From: a virus
Lineage: Duplodnaviria > Heunggongvirae > Uroviricota > Caudoviricetes
DNA length: 64,000 bases
Virus record (IMG/VR): IMGVR_UViG_3300001199_000001
Coordinates: 197,404-261,403 of that record
Direction: 5' to 3' (one strand)
Numbering within the stretch: position 1 is the stretch's first letter; each line of letters begins with the position of its first letter. Made by a program: the position numbers and the translations under genes. This document shows positions 501 through 7,549 of the stretch, piece after piece. Under the pieces are notes generated by a model. The model was not told the DNA's origin and ran no database searches. It saw only the letters and a list, made by a program, of their open reading frames with translations.

Positions 501-1354
501 GCGATTCCCAGGGCGTTCAAGAGGAGGGCTTCAGCTTCAGTCGCGAAGGTTTTATCGAGCGGCATCCGGTCCATACCTTCGCTTTTAACCCACGCCATTT
601 GAGTCTCGATGAATTCGTCCATCACAGCAATGCGCTCGCCGAAACCGATCTCCCCCACCGACATCTTCCGGCGCAGTAGTTTGTCGACCTCGGCACGCAG
701 ATCAGCCGGGATGATGTCCTGACTAAGGAGATGCGGCATGGTCATCGGCGGGACCTCGTTGAATTCCCTGATCCAGCTAATCGCAATCGATCCCCGCAGC
801 GCGTAGAGATACTTCTTCAAATTGACATTCGTCAGGCCTTTAACGACCATGCCGGACTGCCGGTAGTTCTCCATTTCCACCGCCGTCGGGCGATTGCCGA
901 TTTCTCCAGCGTAGCACTTCTGGGTCAGACCGAAGTAGTGACGTGCAGAAGCTTGCGGCGTTGCATGTCTCTTGATCAGCGTCCGCAGTTTGGCGGCGAA
1001 GGGGCCTGACTCACGATAGATCAACGGGCTCGACAGCCACTCAGCCACGGTCGCGTTGCCTTTGACCAGTAGCTTGATCGCCTTACGCAGGTCCCAGCCG
1101 TTGACATCCCATAGGCCGTCGATGGGGCGCTCGATCACATCGCGAGGATCGTCAATGCCAAGATAGGTCGGCAGCGGGCGCACATAGAAGAACCGCACGT
1201 CATAGTCGGAATCAGGCGACGGGAAGCCCCACGCCCGCGAACCGCTTTCGACAGCAAACAGGATGGTGACTTCCTCACGCGCCTCGATCTGGCCAAGCCG
1301 GATATTGGCCTCGCCGTAGATATCAAGCGGGATGGTCGGTGCTGTGAAGCTCAT
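497..1354 (-). CDS. Predicted nucleotidyltransferase (RlaP/YcgL, Nuc-transf family)
   Basis: ESGSRAWGFPSPDSDYDVRF Pol-beta motif, WDLRKA..L..KGN...EWL.SP, KKYLYALR; ATG at 1354 coupled to upstream TGA. Confidence 0.9.
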   Translation of the reverse strand: MSFTAPTIPLDIYGEANIRLGQIEAREEVTILFAVESGSRAWGFPSPDSDYDVRFFYVRPLPTYLGIDDPRDVIERPIDGLWDVNGWDLRKAIKLLVKGNATVAEWLSSPLIYRESGPFAAKLRTLIKRHATPQASARHYFGLTQKCYAGEIGNRPTAVEMENYRQSGMVVKGLTNVNLKKYLYALRGSIAISWIREFNEVPPMTMPHLLSQDIIPADLRAEVDKLLRRKMSVGEIGFGERIAVMDEFIETQMAWVKSEGMDRMPLDKTFATEAEALLLNALGIA

Positions 1355-2139
1355 CAGACAAGGTCCCCGAAAATAAAACCCGGTGTGCGCACCAGCCAAT
1401 TATCATCACGCCCGGTGTGAAAGGTTTTCATCTCGTTACGAGTGATGATTGCGTCTTCTGGCGGCTGCTTAGACGCAGGAATTCGCAGGCGCTCATCAGC
1501 AGATAGTCGTCGTTTGACGGCCTCCTTACGGACCCAAGTGCCGCGCCGAAAAGCGTCGGGGTAGGCCTCGAAATCCACGTCCTTTTGAGCAAGCATATCG
1601 ATCATCGTCGGGACGTTTTTCTGATGCATTTCCTTAGCCGAGTGATGATGACGGCAAGCCATGCTGACGGCATTACGCTCAGCGTCGAGTACGCGCCAAA
1701 AGAACATGTTGGCGACTTCATACGGTTTAGGCAGTTGAAGAACACGCGCGTCAAAGGTCGGATAGCGGTCTTCAAATGGCTCCCAACCCCGGATGGCGCG
1801 GGTGAACGCAGCGGTCGCCATCGCCGCTAGGACGCTGGTCATCTTGGTGATCTTGCCGTCGAAGAAGATCGAGTCGGTGTAATCCTTCGCTAGCCACGTC
1901 AAGCTGATTTCGTCGGACTGGGTATAGCCGATGACGGCGTGGGTTTTATCGACAAGATATTTGGTAGTCTCGACCATGGCGGCCGACATCCGCGCATCGA
2001 AAGGCTTGTCCATGCCTTTCGTCAGCCGCGAGAAGCCCTTGCCGTCGATGCGAGCATAAACTGGCAGCATCGGCAGGAACAACCTGCCGGTTTCCTGCCG
2101 TTCATAAGCCTTCATGCGGTCGCCGAGATCATCCCTCAT
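1354..2139 (-). CDS. tRNA(His) guanylyltransferase Thg1-like protein (TLP)
   Basis: DRMKAYE, ARIDGKGFSRLT, YTQSDEISL, FDGKITK, FDARV, FFWR..DA.RNAVSM motifs. Confidence 0.93.
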   Translation of the reverse strand: MRDDLGDRMKAYERQETGRLFLPMLPVYARIDGKGFSRLTKGMDKPFDARMSAAMVETTKYLVDKTHAVIGYTQSDEISLTWLAKDYTDSIFFDGKITKMTSVLAAMATAAFTRAIRGWEPFEDRYPTFDARVLQLPKPYEVANMFFWRVLDAERNAVSMACRHHHSAKEMHQKNVPTMIDMLAQKDVDFEAYPDAFRRGTWVRKEAVKRRLSADERLRIPASKQPPEDAIITRNEMKTFHTGRDDNWLVRTPGFIFGDLV

Positions 2140-2314
2140 CTGCCCATTTTAAAAGGCGGCGTGTCACAAGTCAACACATGAGTGTTTGTCAAGCGAACAA
2201 TTCCTTAATCCCGCCACAAATCAGTGAGATGGTCTAGGCTCGGCGCGAAGGGGCGGGCGATTGGGGCGAGTCACTTTAAGTGTACTCGCCCCACTTTCAG
2301 TGGGAGTATCCATT

Positions 2315-5191
2315 TTGCCTTATTTTAAGTTCAACGGCACCACTGCGCCAGAAAGTGCGGCCGGAGCCAATATTTACAACATCACGACAGCCGTTAACGG
2401 TACAAACAGCGCAGAAAGCTTCTGGCTGAATGGTGGCGGATCGGCGGCCGGAGGCGGGGGCGATGATACCTATTACTTCCAAGGAGGCACGGGCGTCCTC
2501 GAACTAGCTGGCGGGGGTGTGGACACCATTTCCGCGTGGCAAAAAATCGATCTTTCGAAATATGCCTTCGTCGAGAACGGGTCTACGAACGAATGGATTC
2601 TTGGTAACGATCTGGATAACATCGTAAGCGGAGCCCAAGTCTACGGCGGTAAGGGTCAAGACGTGCTGGTCGGTAATTCCGGCAAGACGGTATTTATCGT
2701 TCACGCTGGCGAAGGTAACGACGCCATTTACAATTTCAACACGGCCGAAGATGTCGTCAGAATCAAATCCACAATCACGGATATTAGTCAGCTTACCCTA
2801 ACACAACAGGGCTCTGACACCGTTGTCGGTTTTGGATCGGACGCCTTCGTCCTCCGTGGCGTCACCGCCTCATCCCTCACCGCAGCAAACTTCAACCTTG
2901 CATTGGACTATAACAAGCTCGGGGCTTTGACGCTTAGCGAAGAGTTCAACACACTTAACCTCTGGAATCCGGACACGGATACCGGTCTGTGGAGCAAGAG
3001 TTTCGGCTATAGCGACAATGGCATTGAGTCGTTGATCGGTAACGGCGAGAAGCAAAATTACAACCGGGACGCGGATAACCTTACCCTAAACAGCGACGGC
3101 ACTTTAAGCCTGATCGCTCACAAGACGACCGACCCATTCTCACTCGCAAATGGTTATGAATACACCTCGGGTATGATCAGCAGCCGCGATTATGCGCCTT
3201 GGGTTGAGGGTAAACCGACCGGGTCGCCACAGTTTGTCCAGCAATACGGCTATTTTGAAATGCGGGCAGAAGTGCCGGTAGAAGCAGGAACATGGCCTGC
3301 CTTCTGGTTGATGCCTGCCGATTGGACTTGGCCGCCTGAACTGGACATCATGGAGATGGTTGGTTCTGATCCGGGAACGGTTCACACCAGCCAGCATACG
3401 AATGAAACCGGCGGTCATACAGGTGTCGGATTCGGGAATGCCATCCCTGGGATTGCTGCCGGTTTCCATACCTTCGGCGTGATGTGGACCGCCGAGACCT
3501 TGACCTTCTATGTCGATAGCATCGAGGTCTTTAAGACCCGTACGCCGGACGACATGCATAAACCTATGGGTATTATCGCCAACCTCGCCTTAGGCGGTGG
3601 TTGGGCTGGACCGGTTGATCTAGGCGCCGACGGCAAAGCGGAAATGAAGATCGACTATATCCGCGCTTACGCCCTGAAGGACGATACGAACCCGCCACCG
3701 CCGGTCGAGACGACCATCAGCCTCGGTACGGGTCAGACCGTCACGGAAGGCGATAGCGGTGATAAGATCATGACCTTTACCGTCTCTCGCTCTGGCGACC
3801 TCACGCACGCCTCCACGGTCAACTACGCTGTGACGGCGGGAACGGCGACAGTGGGTGACTACACGGCTTCACCCTCAGGCACGCTTTCCTTTGCCATTGG
3901 CGAGGCGTCGAAGACCATTCAGGTCACGGTCAAAGGTGACACCGTGGTCGAATCCGACGAGTCCTTCACGGTGAATCTTTCAGGCCCGACGGGCGGTAAG
4001 TTGGGTACGGCCAGTGCGACCGGAGTCATTTTAAATGATGACTCTGCTGCACCTCCTCCTCCCCCACCGCCACCTCCGCCTCCGGGTGATACGGTCATCA
4101 GCTTCGCTGCGGACCAAAGCATCACCGAAGGTGATAGCGGCGAGAAAGTCGTCACCGTTACGGTCAATCGGACGGGTGATTTGTCGGTCTACTCCATCGT
4201 CGATACATGGACAGACATCGGATGGAGCGGAGCTTCAGCAGACGACGTTGTTGGCTCGCCGGGAGGATCGGTCTATTTCCACGCCGGGGAAAGCACCAAG
4301 ACGCTCGATATTCGCATCAAGGGCGACACGGTGGTTGAAGGCGACGAAACCTTCCACATCTATATGAGCAATCCTCGTGATGCTGTGATCGGCGATGACC
4401 GGATGGCTATCACCATCCTAAACGACGACAGCGTTGCGCCCCCGCCACCGCCTCCTCCCGCTCCCGTGATTAATCTCGGTGGCGAACAGACGGTGACCGA
4501 AGGCAACAGCGGCTCGAAGATGATGACCTTCACGGCAACCCGTACGGGTGATCTGACAGGCGTGTCGTCGGTTAACTATTGGGCTCAGTTGGGTGCTTTG
4601 GTGACCAGCGATGACTTCGTAGGAGCACCGTCAGGAACCGTGTCGTTCGCGGCGGGTGAAGCTTCTAAGACGTTCCAGATCGCCGTCAAGGGGGATACGG
4701 TCGTTGAAGCTGACGAGACTTTCAATGTCTTCCTTGATACCGTTAATGGAGCCGTTCTCGGAACCGCAGCCTCAAAGGGTCACATCCTGAATGACGATGT
4801 GGCCGCGCCGCCTCCTCCCCCGCCGACTCCCGTTACCTTGATAGGCACTAAGGGGGCAAACACCCTCGTTGGCAAGGATGGTAACGATAACCTTTATGGC
4901 CTGGGCGGTAACGATAAGCTCGAAGGTGGCAAGGGTGATGACGTTCTGACCGGCGGTGCTGGTGATGACACCTTCATCTTCCGTCAGGGTTTTGGTGACG
5001 ACACCATCGTTGACTTCTATGCGGGTGGAAAGACAGATGAACTTCAGTTCATCGGCTTCGGCTCCACACGACCGACTTCCACGGTTCAGATGGGCGACAA
5101 CGTCCTGATTTCATTCGCCTCGGGGGACAGCATCACACTGCTGGACACCTACCTCGGCGATCTGAGGACCAGCGACTGGATTTGGGGTTAA
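2315..5191 (+). CDS. ExsH-like endo-beta-glycanase (GH16) with three Calx-beta domains and RTX Ca-binding repeats
   Basis: YGYFEMRA..P...G.WPAFWLMP..WPPELDIME (GH16 ExDxxE); N-terminal GGGGDDTYY/GVDTI..W as in ExsH; 3x EGDSG...GDTVVE.DE.F...ILNDD with poly-Pro linkers; C-terminal GGxGxD repeats; probable TTG start at 2315 after GGGAG. Confidence 0.88.
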   Translation: MPYFKFNGTTAPESAAGANIYNITTAVNGTNSAESFWLNGGGSAAGGGGDDTYYFQGGTGVLELAGGGVDTISAWQKIDLSKYAFVENGSTNEWILGNDLDNIVSGAQVYGGKGQDVLVGNSGKTVFIVHAGEGNDAIYNFNTAEDVVRIKSTITDISQLTLTQQGSDTVVGFGSDAFVLRGVTASSLTAANFNLALDYNKLGALTLSEEFNTLNLWNPDTDTGLWSKSFGYSDNGIESLIGNGEKQNYNRDADNLTLNSDGTLSLIAHKTTDPFSLANGYEYTSGMISSRDYAPWVEGKPTGSPQFVQQYGYFEMRAEVPVEAGTWPAFWLMPADWTWPPELDIMEMVGSDPGTVHTSQHTNETGGHTGVGFGNAIPGIAAGFHTFGVMWTAETLTFYVDSIEVFKTRTPDDMHKPMGIIANLALGGGWAGPVDLGADGKAEMKIDYIRAYALKDDTNPPPPVETTISLGTGQTVTEGDSGDKIMTFTVSRSGDLTHASTVNYAVTAGTATVGDYTASPSGTLSFAIGEASKTIQVTVKGDTVVESDESFTVNLSGPTGGKLGTASATGVILNDDSAAPPPPPPPPPPPGDTVISFAADQSITEGDSGEKVVTVTVNRTGDLSVYSIVDTWTDIGWSGASADDVVGSPGGSVYFHAGESTKTLDIRIKGDTVVEGDETFHIYMSNPRDAVIGDDRMAITILNDDSVAPPPPPPPAPVINLGGEQTVTEGNSGSKMMTFTATRTGDLTGVSSVNYWAQLGALVTSDDFVGAPSGTVSFAAGEASKTFQIAVKGDTVVEADETFNVFLDTVNGAVLGTAASKGHILNDDVAAPPPPPPTPVTLIGTKGANTLVGKDGNDNLYGLGGNDKLEGGKGDDVLTGGAGDDTFIFRQGFGDDTIVDFYAGGKTDELQFIGFGSTRPTSTVQMGDNVLISFASGDSITLLDTYLGDLRTSDWIWG

Positions 5192-5309: not shown

Positions 5310-5747
5310 TCATACACGGCTCCCGTCAGGCCTTAAGCGTACCGGCTCTTGTTCCGGATTGCAGGGATGATGTCCCTGTTCGACAAAATATTTGTCGCGC
5401 TTAATCGCCTTTCCGTTTGGCAGGTAGAATGAAAATCGCCGGACGGCAGGCCCGGTTATCAGGAATGTCACAGTTCCAGGCATGACCTGCGTAACCTTGT
5501 GCCGATACTCGGCCCGGCGAAAACGCAGTGATCCCCATCTGAGGGTATCGCGCCCTGCTGGACTTTCGTCGACATAACCACCCCACAGCACAAGGGTCAA
5601 AAACCAGTGCTTATGGTCGTGAAAAGCACGCCTGTCGTCGTCGGCGAACCACCGATGAAATCGGATGGCGAAAGCGCCGAAATCGACCCCCAGCAGGTGG
5701 AAGTAGGGACATTCTGGCAACCCGCCGCGATGATTGAGAAACTTCAT
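5310..5747 (-). CDS. Cupin-like phage protein
   Basis: HDH.HWFLTLVLWGGYVDE...H motif typical of phage cupin-fold proteins. Confidence 0.65.
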   Translation of the reverse strand: MKFLNHRGGLPECPYFHLLGVDFGAFAIRFHRWFADDDRRAFHDHKHWFLTLVLWGGYVDESPAGRDTLRWGSLRFRRAEYRHKVTQVMPGTVTFLITGPAVRRFSFYLPNGKAIKRDKYFVEQGHHPCNPEQEPVRLRPDGSRV

Positions 5748-6235
5748 AGCTTGATGATCGAGGCGCTGACCGGCTTGCCTTGAAATTCAAAACGATCTTC
5801 GAGTCTGAATCGCTCGCCACCGTACACCGACTGCACGATGTCGGCTTGATCATCATGTAGAAGCGCGACAATCGCCGAGTACTGCTTGAACGCGCAGCGT
5901 GTTTTCGCCTGTTCGACGAATTTGAAACCCAATCCCAACGGCGGGTTCATCAAACAAACTGTGAAAAGCCTCTGGCCTGGAACCATAATAGGATCGCGAA
6001 GGAAGTCCGCGTGCCGGACATCGGCAAAATGCTGCCGCAAGAACGCGCAACGAGATGCATTCAACTCAATGCAGGTAACATCGGCCCCTGCTTCCTTGGC
6101 GAGAAACGCTAGGCTGCCACACCCGGCTCCGGGAACGAGGACCCGGTCGTAGAAGTCAAGTCCGCCCACTAGCCTCACCATCTGGAGCGCTATGTGGAGC
6201 GGCGTAGACGTAGCTTCAAAGACGACCTGTTCCAT
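5744..6235 (-). CDS. SAM-dependent methyltransferase-like protein
   Basis: RVLVPGAGCGSLA (motif I), VTCIELN, HADFL, MNPP. Confidence 0.75.
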   Translation of the reverse strand: MEQVVFEATSTPLHIALQMVRLVGGLDFYDRVLVPGAGCGSLAFLAKEAGADVTCIELNASRCAFLRQHFADVRHADFLRDPIMVPGQRLFTVCLMNPPLGLGFKFVEQAKTRCAFKQYSAIVALLHDDQADIVQSVYGGERFRLEDRFEFQGKPVSASIIKL

Positions 6236-6249
6236 ATCTTCCTATAAAA

Positions 6250-6493
6250 TGGTCCGAGGGGCGGGATTCGAACCGACGACCTCCGAGTCTTCATCCAGCA
6301 ACTTCAGGTATGTCTCATAGCGTTCTTATCCGTTCACAAGGTAGCGACCCTTGCTACTAGGTCCGGATATCTACGAGTTTTCGAGCCTCAAATCACCACA
6401 GTCAGGCTGAAGTGGGCCTAACCGTTACGTAATCCTACTCTCTTCCGTCTGTTTACGCTGGCCTCGGCGCTCTACCAACTGAGCTACCCCCGG
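6250..6493 (-). tRNA. tRNA-Phe(GAA)-like gene with 168-nt insertion in the anticodon arm
   Basis: CCGGGGG/CCCTCGG-A-CCA acceptor, TAGCTCAGTTGGTAGAGC D arm, CCGAG/CTCGG anticodon stem, TTCGAAT T loop; removing 6295-6462 leaves 76 nt with loop ATGAAGA. Confidence 0.8.
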
Positions 6494-6502
6494 CTGATTG
6501 TT

Positions 6503-6538
6503 AGATTAGTAGGAGTTGACGACGTTGTCAACTCCTAC
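6503..6538 (-). promoter_or_regulatory. Sigma70-type promoter embedded in a perfect 12-bp inverted repeat
   Basis: TTGACA-N17-TAATCT just upstream of the tRNA-like gene; GTAGGAGTTGAC-N6-GTCAACTCCTAC at 6509-6538. Confidence 0.7.
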
Positions 6539-6547
6539 GAACCAAAT

Positions 6548-6886
6548 TTAGGCTGCCTGCTTCATTTCGCCCAGTGGACGCAGATGGGCGAACCGCTGGC
6601 GAGCTTCACCTTGTAAGGGTTCAGTCGCCAGTGCGGTGTAGCCGGTGTCATAGTCCGGTTCGTGGAAGCAGTGGTAGCGAATGCCGTCCTTTTCGAGATC
6701 GCGCTTCAGCTTGATCAGGTCCCGTTCCGAATCGATCCCGAACAAGACGAAATTGGTCTTGCCGTTCGGGTAGTCGTCACGAGAAAGTTCAAGCCCAAGC
6801 TCGAACGTCGCATGGGCGGTCTGGATGACCTGAACCCGTGGGCTCAGGTCGGTTCGGATGAACAGGTAAAGGTAATGCTCGGGCAT
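6548..6886 (-). CDS. Peptidyl-tRNA hydrolase Pth2-like protein
   Basis: YLFIRTDLS....IQTAHA ... FHEPD...TALA pattern of short Pth2-fold proteins. Confidence 0.75.
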   Translation of the reverse strand: MPEHYLYLFIRTDLSPRVQVIQTAHATFELGLELSRDDYPNGKTNFVLFGIDSERDLIKLKRDLEKDGIRYHCFHEPDYDTGYTALATEPLQGEARQRFAHLRPLGEMKQAA

Positions 6887-7347: not shown

Positions 7348-7425
7348 TGGCGCCCGTGACAGGAGTCGAACCTGCAAACCTTTCTGGTGTATGCCCAGAC
7401 TGCTCCGCCGTTGAGCTACACAGGC
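7348..7425 (-). tRNA. tRNA-like RNA with non-canonical anticodon loop (undetermined isotype)
   Basis: GCCTGTG/CACGGGC-G-CCA, GCTC/GAGC D stem, GCAGG-TTCGACT-CCTGT T arm; loop GCATACA lacks U33; promoter TTGACA-N17-TATATT upstream. Confidence 0.78.
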
Positions 7426-7466
7426 TTAATGTGTGAGATGAATATAGACGCTTGGATTAACCCTGT

Positions 7467-7549
7467 CAAGGGTTTTTAGTCAACACCTCTAGAAGAAGGT
7501 CTTGACGCCAAGGGTTTTTAGTCAACACCTCTAGAAGAAGGTCTTGACG
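7467..7549. repeat. Tandem duplication, 41-bp unit (42-bp period)
   Basis: caagggtttttagtcaacacctctagaagaaggtcttgacg at 7467 and 7509. Confidence 0.9.

Follow-up and report, generated by a model that had tools for sequence, protein, structure and literature searches.

Do viruses of bacteria carry tRNA introns outside the group I class? To our knowledge, every transfer RNA (tRNA) intron that has been well characterised in bacteria or their viruses is a self-splicing member of group I, and the question is raised by a tRNA-Phe(GAA)-like gene interrupted by a 168-nt insert in a 64,000-nt stretch of DNA (the window, to which coordinates refer unless stated otherwise) from IMG/VR record IMGVR_UViG_3300001199_000001, a 278,859-bp virus whose nearest named relative is the Caulobacter phage CcrColossus. 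The interrupted gene lies on the minus strand and runs from position 6493 to 6250 (c[203653,203896] in the genome). An earlier note on the window had offered two readings of this gene: that it holds a compact intron or ribozyme of a new kind, or that it yields a tRNA-like RNA which stays unspliced, carries a cargo domain and has an architecture resembling transfer-messenger RNA (tmRNA). Our results better support the first, through the lack of a group I match, covariation in the insert and the existence of an intron-less allele, and do not bear out the tmRNA flavour of the second. We give about an even chance to the reading, drawn from sequence comparison, that the insert is a tRNA intron of a new kind outside group I; the family comprises seven interrupted genes in four related jumbo phages.

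ARAGORN in intron mode (-i) called the locus as tRNA-Phe(gaa) with a 168-nt intron, i(32,168), at coordinates identical to those of the earlier note, which had proposed this check. The gene was missed by the default mode, which allows no introns, and Rfam gave nothing above the gathering threshold at the locus, the unspliced gene having no match to RF00005. The acceptor stem with A73-CCA, the D arm and the T arm are present as described in the note; all seven acceptor pairs form, including C1-G72 and one G4.U69. In-silico deletion of 6295-6462 yielded the expected 76-nt product with the loop AUGAAGA, and ARAGORN in default mode recognised this product as an ordinary tRNA-Phe. The boundary of the insert is ambiguous by one base, a placement one base later being equally possible. 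Five shuffled 279-kb genomes gave four intron-type ARAGORN calls in total, so that roughly one false call is to be expected in each genome, and none of these had the AGCTCAG D arm together with the GTTCGA T loop; the three remaining intron-type calls in the real genome were poor cloverleaves. The window gene differs from these background calls, and the observation of an interrupted tRNA is confirmed as genuine, neither chance nor decay.

A 45-nt blastn match to the T arm pointed to a 700-bp unannotated gap upstream of a 'DNA modification methylase' gene in the Brevundimonas phage Bajun, and this gap contains two tandem interrupted tRNA-like genes with inserts of about 197 and 185 nt. A tblastn search with the open reading frame (ORF) downstream of the window gene found the same small methyltransferase in phages CcrColossus and CcrPW, where an unannotated gap of ~670 bp upstream of the methyltransferase holds two interrupted genes in each phage (inserts of 200 and 172 nt in CcrColossus, 200 and 173 nt in CcrPW). 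Together with the single gene of the window virus, seven genes share C1-G72, A73, an encoded CCA and an insert after position 31, and in six of them the loop AUGAAGA directly follows the insert; in Bajun copy 1, AUAGAAGA replaces AUGAAGA and two unpaired bases remain after the end helix. The acceptor stems are completely paired (7/7) in all seven genes, with five different sequences, and the proteins adjoining the genes are just 34-57% identical across the four phages. The six homologues carry no annotation in the GenBank/RefSeq records of CcrColossus, CcrPW and Bajun (copies from the phage collection), the accessible part of the 2012 paper on CcrColossus (PMC3556154) reports ordinary tRNAs only, and a literature search, with supplements outside its scope, found no description of the family.

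A pattern for the 3' half of the gene was absent from five other Dolichocephalovirinae records (phiCbK, Rogue, BL10, Kabachok and Gurke) and gave one chance match, not a tRNA, in 185,579 bacterial and archaeal species genomes. Searches with blastn of the window, Bajun and CcrColossus copies against 50,697 phage records returned only self-matches and the 45-nt T-arm match, and an exact 26-nt stretch from the 3' half had no match in IMG/VR. An IMG/VR search with two flanking proteins found no relatives, the alignment of the cupin encoded downstream matched only CcrColossus and CcrPW when compared with IMG/VR, and relatives reached by way of a Thg1-like protein encoded in the window (47% identity; L002-L007, G001-G005) had no homologue near that gene by BLAST or ARAGORN.

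When the inserts were removed in silico, six of the seven genes were called as ordinary tRNA-Phe(GAA) by ARAGORN in default mode. Between the second genes of CcrColossus and CcrPW, there were no differences at 77 exon positions versus differences in 38 of 173 insert columns. The comparison with uninterrupted alleles, suggested in the earlier note, was also informative: a pattern scan detected a 76-nt intron-less tRNA-Phe with the identical AUGAAGA loop, C1-G72, C2-G71 and A73 in the tRNA cluster of a jumbo-phage contig (G006, c[177139,177214]), in which it is the sole tRNA-Phe. The same gene occurs in a 340-kb metagenome contig (L036), the only one of 15 loci from a metagenome pattern scan with a tRNA at the match. 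No uninterrupted tRNA-Phe was found in CcrColossus (38 ARAGORN calls) or Bajun (32 calls).

Four pairings listed in the earlier note (CCAGC/GCUGG, ACUUCAG/CUGAAGU, UAUCCG/CGGAUA and CAAGG/CCUUG) were found in the insert. Its minimum free energy (MFE) was -52.3 kcal/mol (z -2.22; 5 of 200 shuffles folded as well), and the whole 244-nt gene had a folding z of -0.79; folding energy by itself is weak evidence for structure. The closing helix formed by the two ends of the insert (H1) has equivalents of 4-6 bp after one unpaired purine in all seven genes with differing sequences, the variants being CCAGCG/UGCUGG, CCGUGC/GCAUGG, CCGGG/CCUGG, CCGC/GCGG and GUCAC/GUGGU. A hairpin with an invariant CUUC in its loop (stem of at least 5 bp, loop of 6-9 nt) likewise occurs in every insert, its loop starting at insert nucleotide 48 in the window copy, Bajun copy 1 and the first copies of CcrColossus and CcrPW. 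By chance, such a hairpin arose in 15-140 of 2000 dinucleotide shuffles of each insert, and multiplying these frequencies for five independent inserts gives 9e-10. In the alignment, no copy loses any of the five inner stem pairs, both partners have changed in 11 cells, and the covariation score of this stem was 0.80 versus 0.26 in shuffles, a value reached by none of 500.

In the second genes of CcrColossus and CcrPW, the loop GUCGCUA of the CAAGG hairpin caps another stem, CCGGG/CUCGG, and two stem pairs are changed on both sides, as judged by eye; between the second-gene inserts of these two phages, 8 of 72 predicted pairs show a compensatory change. Comparative support was not found for the UAUCCG/CGGAUA helix. 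The shared motifs are not arranged in the same order in the window copy as in the second genes of CcrColossus, CcrPW and Bajun, and no full consensus fold was settled. The aligned genes show the insert to be a constrained RNA structure, with helices kept through compensating changes. An unconserved insert, as in a decayed pseudogene, would by the earlier note have spoken against its proposal; the inserts are structurally conserved, with covariation, in the relatives.

In the window copy, the hairpin loop contains the complement of anticodon-loop residues U33-G37 as CUUCA, and that of the internal CUGAAGU as ACUUCAG. Throughout the family, CUUC(A/G) is the complement of U33-G37 in the adjoining AUGAAGA strand, and from this complementarity we infer a pairing between the CUUC loop and the anticodon strand that resembles a codon-anticodon contact between loops. 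The internal CUGAAGU of the window copy could compete as a second partner for the CUUC loop, and GAAG-containing motifs recur in the inserts of the relatives. As a separate observation, the UAGCGA loop of the first-gene insert is the exact complement of the UCGCUA loop of the second-gene insert in CcrColossus (L016, around 2000-2015 and 2247-2263) and likewise in CcrPW (L017). The two inserts, if co-transcribed, could kiss through these loops; the insert of the window has the UCGCUA loop alone, without a UAGCGA partner.

How might such an insert be removed? A promoter of its own would drive one transcript in which the interrupted tRNA is followed by the methyltransferase and cupin genes. Before splicing, the anticodon stem would be intact, with a 1 x 7 internal loop between it and the closing helix that stacks on it, and the CUUC loop would pair with the 7-nt anticodon strand; this pairing would hold the strand against the insert and place the two junctions next to each other where the closing helix begins. 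RNA-catalysed or protein-catalysed cuts at both junctions would free the insert. RtcB ligates 2',3'-cyclic-phosphate and 5'-OH ends, and the RtcB of the phage (E 4e-123, genome 167807-168940; also present in CcrColossus, CcrPW and Bajun, thus in all four carriers, with E about 1e-123) would join G31 to A32 to give a 76-nt tRNA-Phe with an unusual A32/G37 loop, which the small amino-methyltransferase encoded next door may modify before or after splicing. A more specific version, which we consider rather unlikely, is that the insert belongs to a new catalytic or guide class of intron whose hairpin loop grips its own anticodon to set both splice sites, and which either excises itself with ends suited to RtcB or, prior to its removal, offers the anticodon loop to the methyltransferase and cupin. 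If so, this would constitute an intron-dependent modification circuit in a bacterial virus.

Several observations weigh against an excised intron. A look for sequencing runs turned up a single one, of DNA and probably of the source sample, and none of RNA. The insert had no match at E<=10 to the self-cleaving ribozyme models of Rfam 15 (hammerhead, twister, pistol, hatchet, hepatitis delta virus (HDV)-like and others), nor to any Rfam family of any kind at this threshold. A bulge-helix-bulge could not be drawn at the junctions, whose geometry on inspection is a helix, the 1 x 7 internal loop and a helix, and an EndA-type splicing endonuclease (PF01974) was found in none of the five phage records, the control being positive in four archaea. 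With no ribozyme or intron family match, no EndA and no bulge-helix-bulge, no cutting activity is pinpointed. RtcB occurs in as many as 550 phage records; among them are those of phiCbK, Rogue, BL10, Kabachok and Gurke, in which the pattern search found no interrupted gene, and the ligase is therefore permissive, not diagnostic. The T stem of the window copy (GUCGG/CCCGC) has a C51xC63 mismatch, the sole flaw of its cloverleaf and one that the earlier note did not mention. The genome of the window virus has a conventional tRNA-Phe (88717-88792, loop CUGAAAA) in its main tRNA cluster, so that the interrupted copy would be dispensable for decoding. Between the first genes of CcrColossus and CcrPW, the insert differs at 6 of 200 positions versus 7 of 76 in the exons, and an insert more conserved than its exons fits one with its own function. 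Bajun copy 1 (L015, 370-643), after removal of its insert, has an 8-nt loop AUAGAAGA in which ARAGORN reads a four-base anticodon AGAA, and represents either a decayed copy or a frameshift-type tRNA.

The main alternative is that the RNA is never spliced and acts as a chimeric tRNA-like molecule, its anticodon arm extended by a structured domain and AUGAAGA serving as a pseudoknot strand with the CUUC loop; possible roles include a decoy or sponge for a host nuclease that targets tRNAs, a platform for the methyltransferase and cupin, or a regulator. Excision machinery was not found in the Rfam and EndA searches, the first-copy insert of CcrColossus and CcrPW is better conserved than the exons, a normal tRNA-Phe is available in the window genome, the conserved insert loops CUUC, GUCGCUA and GGAUUAC with several copies of GAAG suggest a job of their own, and these phages have other tRNA-like non-coding RNAs such as the YrlA-like RNAs beside the Ro60 gene of CcrColossus. 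However, another phage has as its only tRNA-Phe an uninterrupted allele whose 7-nt loop is identical, six of the seven genes retain U33, the GAA triplet and the 7-nt length, copy 2 combines invariant exons with a drifting insert, and CcrColossus and Bajun would be left with no phage tRNA-Phe. We regard an unspliced RNA as possible, if somewhat doubtful. It is far less credible, and in our view quite improbable, that a dead tRNA gene hit by a small mobile insertion resembling a miniature inverted-repeat transposable element is decaying. The ends of the insert are indeed inverted repeats, and the T-stem mismatch and the normal tRNA-Phe elsewhere in the genome would suit decay, but one site is shared by seven genes in four phages with neighbouring proteins of only 34-57% identity, the end helix and hairpin covary instead of keeping their sequence, the copy 2 exons are invariant between CcrColossus and CcrPW, and further copies of the insert were not found in 50,697 phage records.

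The group I class is common in bacteria, with 5292 mapped tRNA introns of which 98.5% have U(-1)/G(omega) (Williams 2020, bioRxiv 10.1101/2020.01.27.920355). The bacterial group I (IC3) introns in tRNA genes for Leu(UAA), fMet, Ile and Arg (Williams 2020) are like the present insert in their site in the anticodon loop, their size of a few hundred nucleotides or less, their terminal G and the existence of intron-less alleles. A strongly reduced or divergent group I intron, still self-splicing with guanosine, would account for two features, a location bordering the anticodon loop, where such introns sit in bacteria, and a final insert base that is G in six of the seven genes, as in group I introns. 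Nevertheless, Intron_gpI (RF00028) had no match at E<=10 in the window (6000-6800), the Bajun and CcrColossus loci and five whole phage records, in agreement with the lack of clear group I motifs remarked on earlier; a match to the standard model was the finding that the earlier note had named as contrary to its own proposal. By the Rfam model, the insert is not a group I intron. The base at -1 of the 5' junction is G in six genes and A in Bajun copy 1, not U or C, and any placement with a 7-nt loop and U33 leaves no U at -1; the terminal G and the missing U in the window copy had been noted correctly. The two ends of the insert pair mutually, unlike the group I architecture, the site is 31/32 and the gene is phage-encoded. 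The 168-nt length also falls below the sizes known to us for group I introns, and we hold a reduced member of this class to be very improbable.

The topology of tRNA-like ends around an internal structured domain is shared with tmRNA and would suit an RNA for trans-translation that contains a tag frame, and a short frame ending in RPTSA(A)-stop is common to the window copy and Bajun copy 2, as seen by eye. This frame overlies the conserved hairpin and is missing in the other five genes, and, being conserved in only two of seven, the tag frame was dropped. Unlike tmRNA, the present genes have a full D arm and anticodon stem, and G3.U70 is found in none of the seven, G4.U69 being confined to the window copy. 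Neither ARAGORN -m nor the Rfam tmRNA models made a call, an 11-nt stretch of T loop being all that scored (5.8 bits), and Bajun and G006 have separate tmRNA genes, that of Bajun being permuted. The tmRNA-like architecture proposed in the earlier note is, on these sequence criteria, effectively refuted.

YrlA (RF02553) resembles the interrupted genes in combining a tRNA-like module with a helical extension at the anticodon position, and YrlA-like RNAs occur in related phages, but YrlA is circularly permuted relative to tRNA. The score was 25.3 bits against a gathering threshold of 69, in a match spanning the T arm and D arm of adjacent CcrColossus genes; a permuted YrlA across the tandem genes was rejected, as neighbouring acceptor halves mismatch and the own halves of each gene pair. 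The genuine YrlA-like RNAs of CcrColossus lie beside its Ro60 gene, 130 kb away, and a Ro60/TROVE gene is absent from the window genome. ARAGORN -i miscalls these tandem YrlA-like RNAs (108720-109456) as intron-bearing tRNAs (Ile, Gln), which calls for caution in intron-mode tRNA scans of phage genomes. Three further candidates were dropped: RtcB as a specific partner, being encoded by phages that lack the interrupted genes; a bulge-helix-bulge intron, the motif not being drawable; and an HDV-like ribozyme acting from the 5' junction, whose P1 partner would need to be the extreme 3' end.

Returning to the proposed new intron, archaeal and eukaryal protein-spliced tRNA introns form an anticodon-intron helix, and the present family resembles them in the potential of the insert to pair with the anticodon and in the presence of an RtcB gene. 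Unlike them, it has no bulge-helix-bulge, no EndA in five phage records, a site at 31/32 instead of 37/38 and a bacterial host. Also comparable are the tRNA inserts of unknown type in Lak megaphages, termed 'enigmatic' in the part of the report accessible to us (Devoto et al. 2019, PMC6784885), which from that account are likewise conserved, class-less inserts in phage tRNAs with alleles that have and lack the insert. As described there, they differ in phage group, in the Prevotella host and in the tRNAs concerned (Thr/Tyr), a distinction made by description and not by sequence. Against that description, the present family has a defined closing helix, an anticodon-complementary hairpin, covariation, a fixed non-canonical site, a conserved neighbourhood and cultured phages. 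It constitutes a structurally defined, covarying, non-group-I insert family in cultured phages of the model bacterium Caulobacter and of Brevundimonas. If the insert is spliced, there would be a second tRNA splicing pathway in bacteria-infecting viruses, through a new ribozyme or an endonuclease with RtcB; if not, a new kind of tRNA-like chimeric RNA. Either outcome would suggest a function for the conserved methyltransferase-cupin pair and possibly a natural substrate for the phage RtcB.

Features of the interrupted tRNA-Phe gene and its surroundings in the window
Feature	Position	Strand	Basis or remark
Exon 1, tRNA nt 1-31	6463..6493	-	ARAGORN -i, sequence
Acceptor 5' strand CCGGGGG, then U8 A9	exon 1	-	sequence
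D arm GCUC-AGUUGGUA-GAGC, then G26	exon 1	-	canonical, with GG
Anticodon-stem strands CCGAG / CUCGG	exon 1 / exon 2	-	5 bp
Insert (putative intron), 168 nt, between tRNA nt 31/32	6295..6462	-	ARAGORN -i
Unpaired G ahead of H1 5' strand	6462	-	insert nt 1
Closing helix H1, 5' strand CCAGCG	6456..6461	-	insert nt 2-7; pairs with 6295-6300
Hairpin with 8-nt loop CCACUUCA at 6408-6415	6398..6425	-	insert nt 38-65; 7/7 inserts
Helix UAUCCG/CGGAUA around CAAGG hairpin	6327..6369	-	insert nt 94-99/131-136; MFE fold
Hairpin CAAGG-GUCGCUA-CCUUG	6337..6353	-	insert nt 110-126; loop common to relatives
Internal CUGAAGU, just 5' of H1 3' strand	6301..6307	-	insert nt 156-162; sequence
H1 3' strand UGCUGG, ends at 3' junction	6295..6300	-	insert nt 163-168; MFE fold, comparison
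Exon 2, tRNA nt 32-76 including encoded CCA	6250..6294	-	ARAGORN -i
Anticodon loop AUGAAGA (A32 U33 G34 A35 A36 G37 A38)	6288..6294	-	contiguous with exon 2
AGGUC between anticodon stem and T arm	exon 2	-	sequence
T arm GUCGG-UUCGAAU-CCCGC	exon 2	-	sequence
Acceptor 3' strand CCCUCGG, then A73, encoded CCA	exon 2	-	
Putative promoter TTGACA (6531-6526), 17-nt spacer, TAATCT (6508-6503)	6503..6531	-	by eye
12-bp inverted repeat between upstream ORF and tRNA gene	6509..6538	-	overlaps putative -35 and spacer
112-aa ORF just upstream of tRNA gene	6548-6886	-	sub-threshold PTH2 match, E 1e-3
163-aa small S-adenosylmethionine methyltransferase, motifs VLVPGAGCGS and NPPL	5744..6235	-	PHROG methyltransferase 1.2e-8
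145-aa cupin-type protein, 'cysteine dioxygenase' in relatives	5310..5747	-	PHROG 4786 E 2.1e-30
Thg1-like tRNA-His guanylyltransferase	1354-2139	-	

The putative promoter ends 9 nt ahead of the tRNA 5' end, and similar sites were seen by eye upstream of the CcrColossus (TTGACG-N17-TAGATA) and Bajun (TTGACG-N17-TACATA) genes; a strict sigma-70 scan called none of the three sites. The methyltransferase ORF begins 14 nt past the CCA of the tRNA, which makes co-transcription of the two probable. This protein has weak Erm37/KsgA matches, structural look-alikes in the ESM Atlas belonging to PF05175 MTS (TM 0.85) and, among PDB sequences, only generic class I methyltransferases (E>=0.02), and a word-index protein search returned the query itself only; its AlphaFold model, with a mean pLDDT (predicted local distance difference test) of 41 from a 3-row alignment, was not used for fold search. 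By sequence it resembles the MTS/N6 amino-methyltransferase class. In Bajun, CcrColossus and CcrPW, a homologue immediately follows the interrupted tRNAs, and none was found in G006, the phage with the intron-less allele, a contig about 74% complete; the strict linkage to interrupted genes suggests that the enzyme acts on their RNA. The cupin, the last gene of the conserved module, is 57% identical to the proteins at the same position in CcrColossus and Bajun. The module of promoter, tRNA(s), methyltransferase and cupin is conserved, and the other flanking genes are not syntenic across lineages. The 112-aa ORF upstream has no PDB or NCBIfam match and is not conserved beside the genes of the relatives. 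With this PTH2-like ORF and the Thg1-like protein, the region of the window is rich in tRNA-handling genes.

Some additional observations were made on tRNA-like genes in the window and its relatives. A second odd tRNA-like gene at 7348-7425 on the minus strand has good acceptor, D and T arms and a loop GCAUACA without U33; ARAGORN named it 'Tyr(ata)', and it lies directly behind a promoter matching the sigma-70 consensus at 11 of 12 positions (TTGACA-17-TATATT, 7441-7469). A relative to which the Thg1-like protein had led (IMG/VR contig G003; L013, 1873-2035) carries a perfect tRNA-Thr(GGU) cloverleaf with an 87-nt insert after U33, which, being too short for group I, gives a related jumbo phage a further tRNA insert that lacks an explanation. 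The genome of the window virus encodes, beyond the window, ribosomal proteins L11 and L1 at full length (genome 171195-172306; Pfam E 3e-28 and 2e-68), near which lie RtcB, a GcrA-like regulator and a PrkA/DUF444/SpoVR trio. Within the window, an ORF at 2261-5191 on the plus strand encodes a 976-aa protein with a glycoside hydrolase 16 domain, three Calx-beta domains and RTX calcium-binding repeats.

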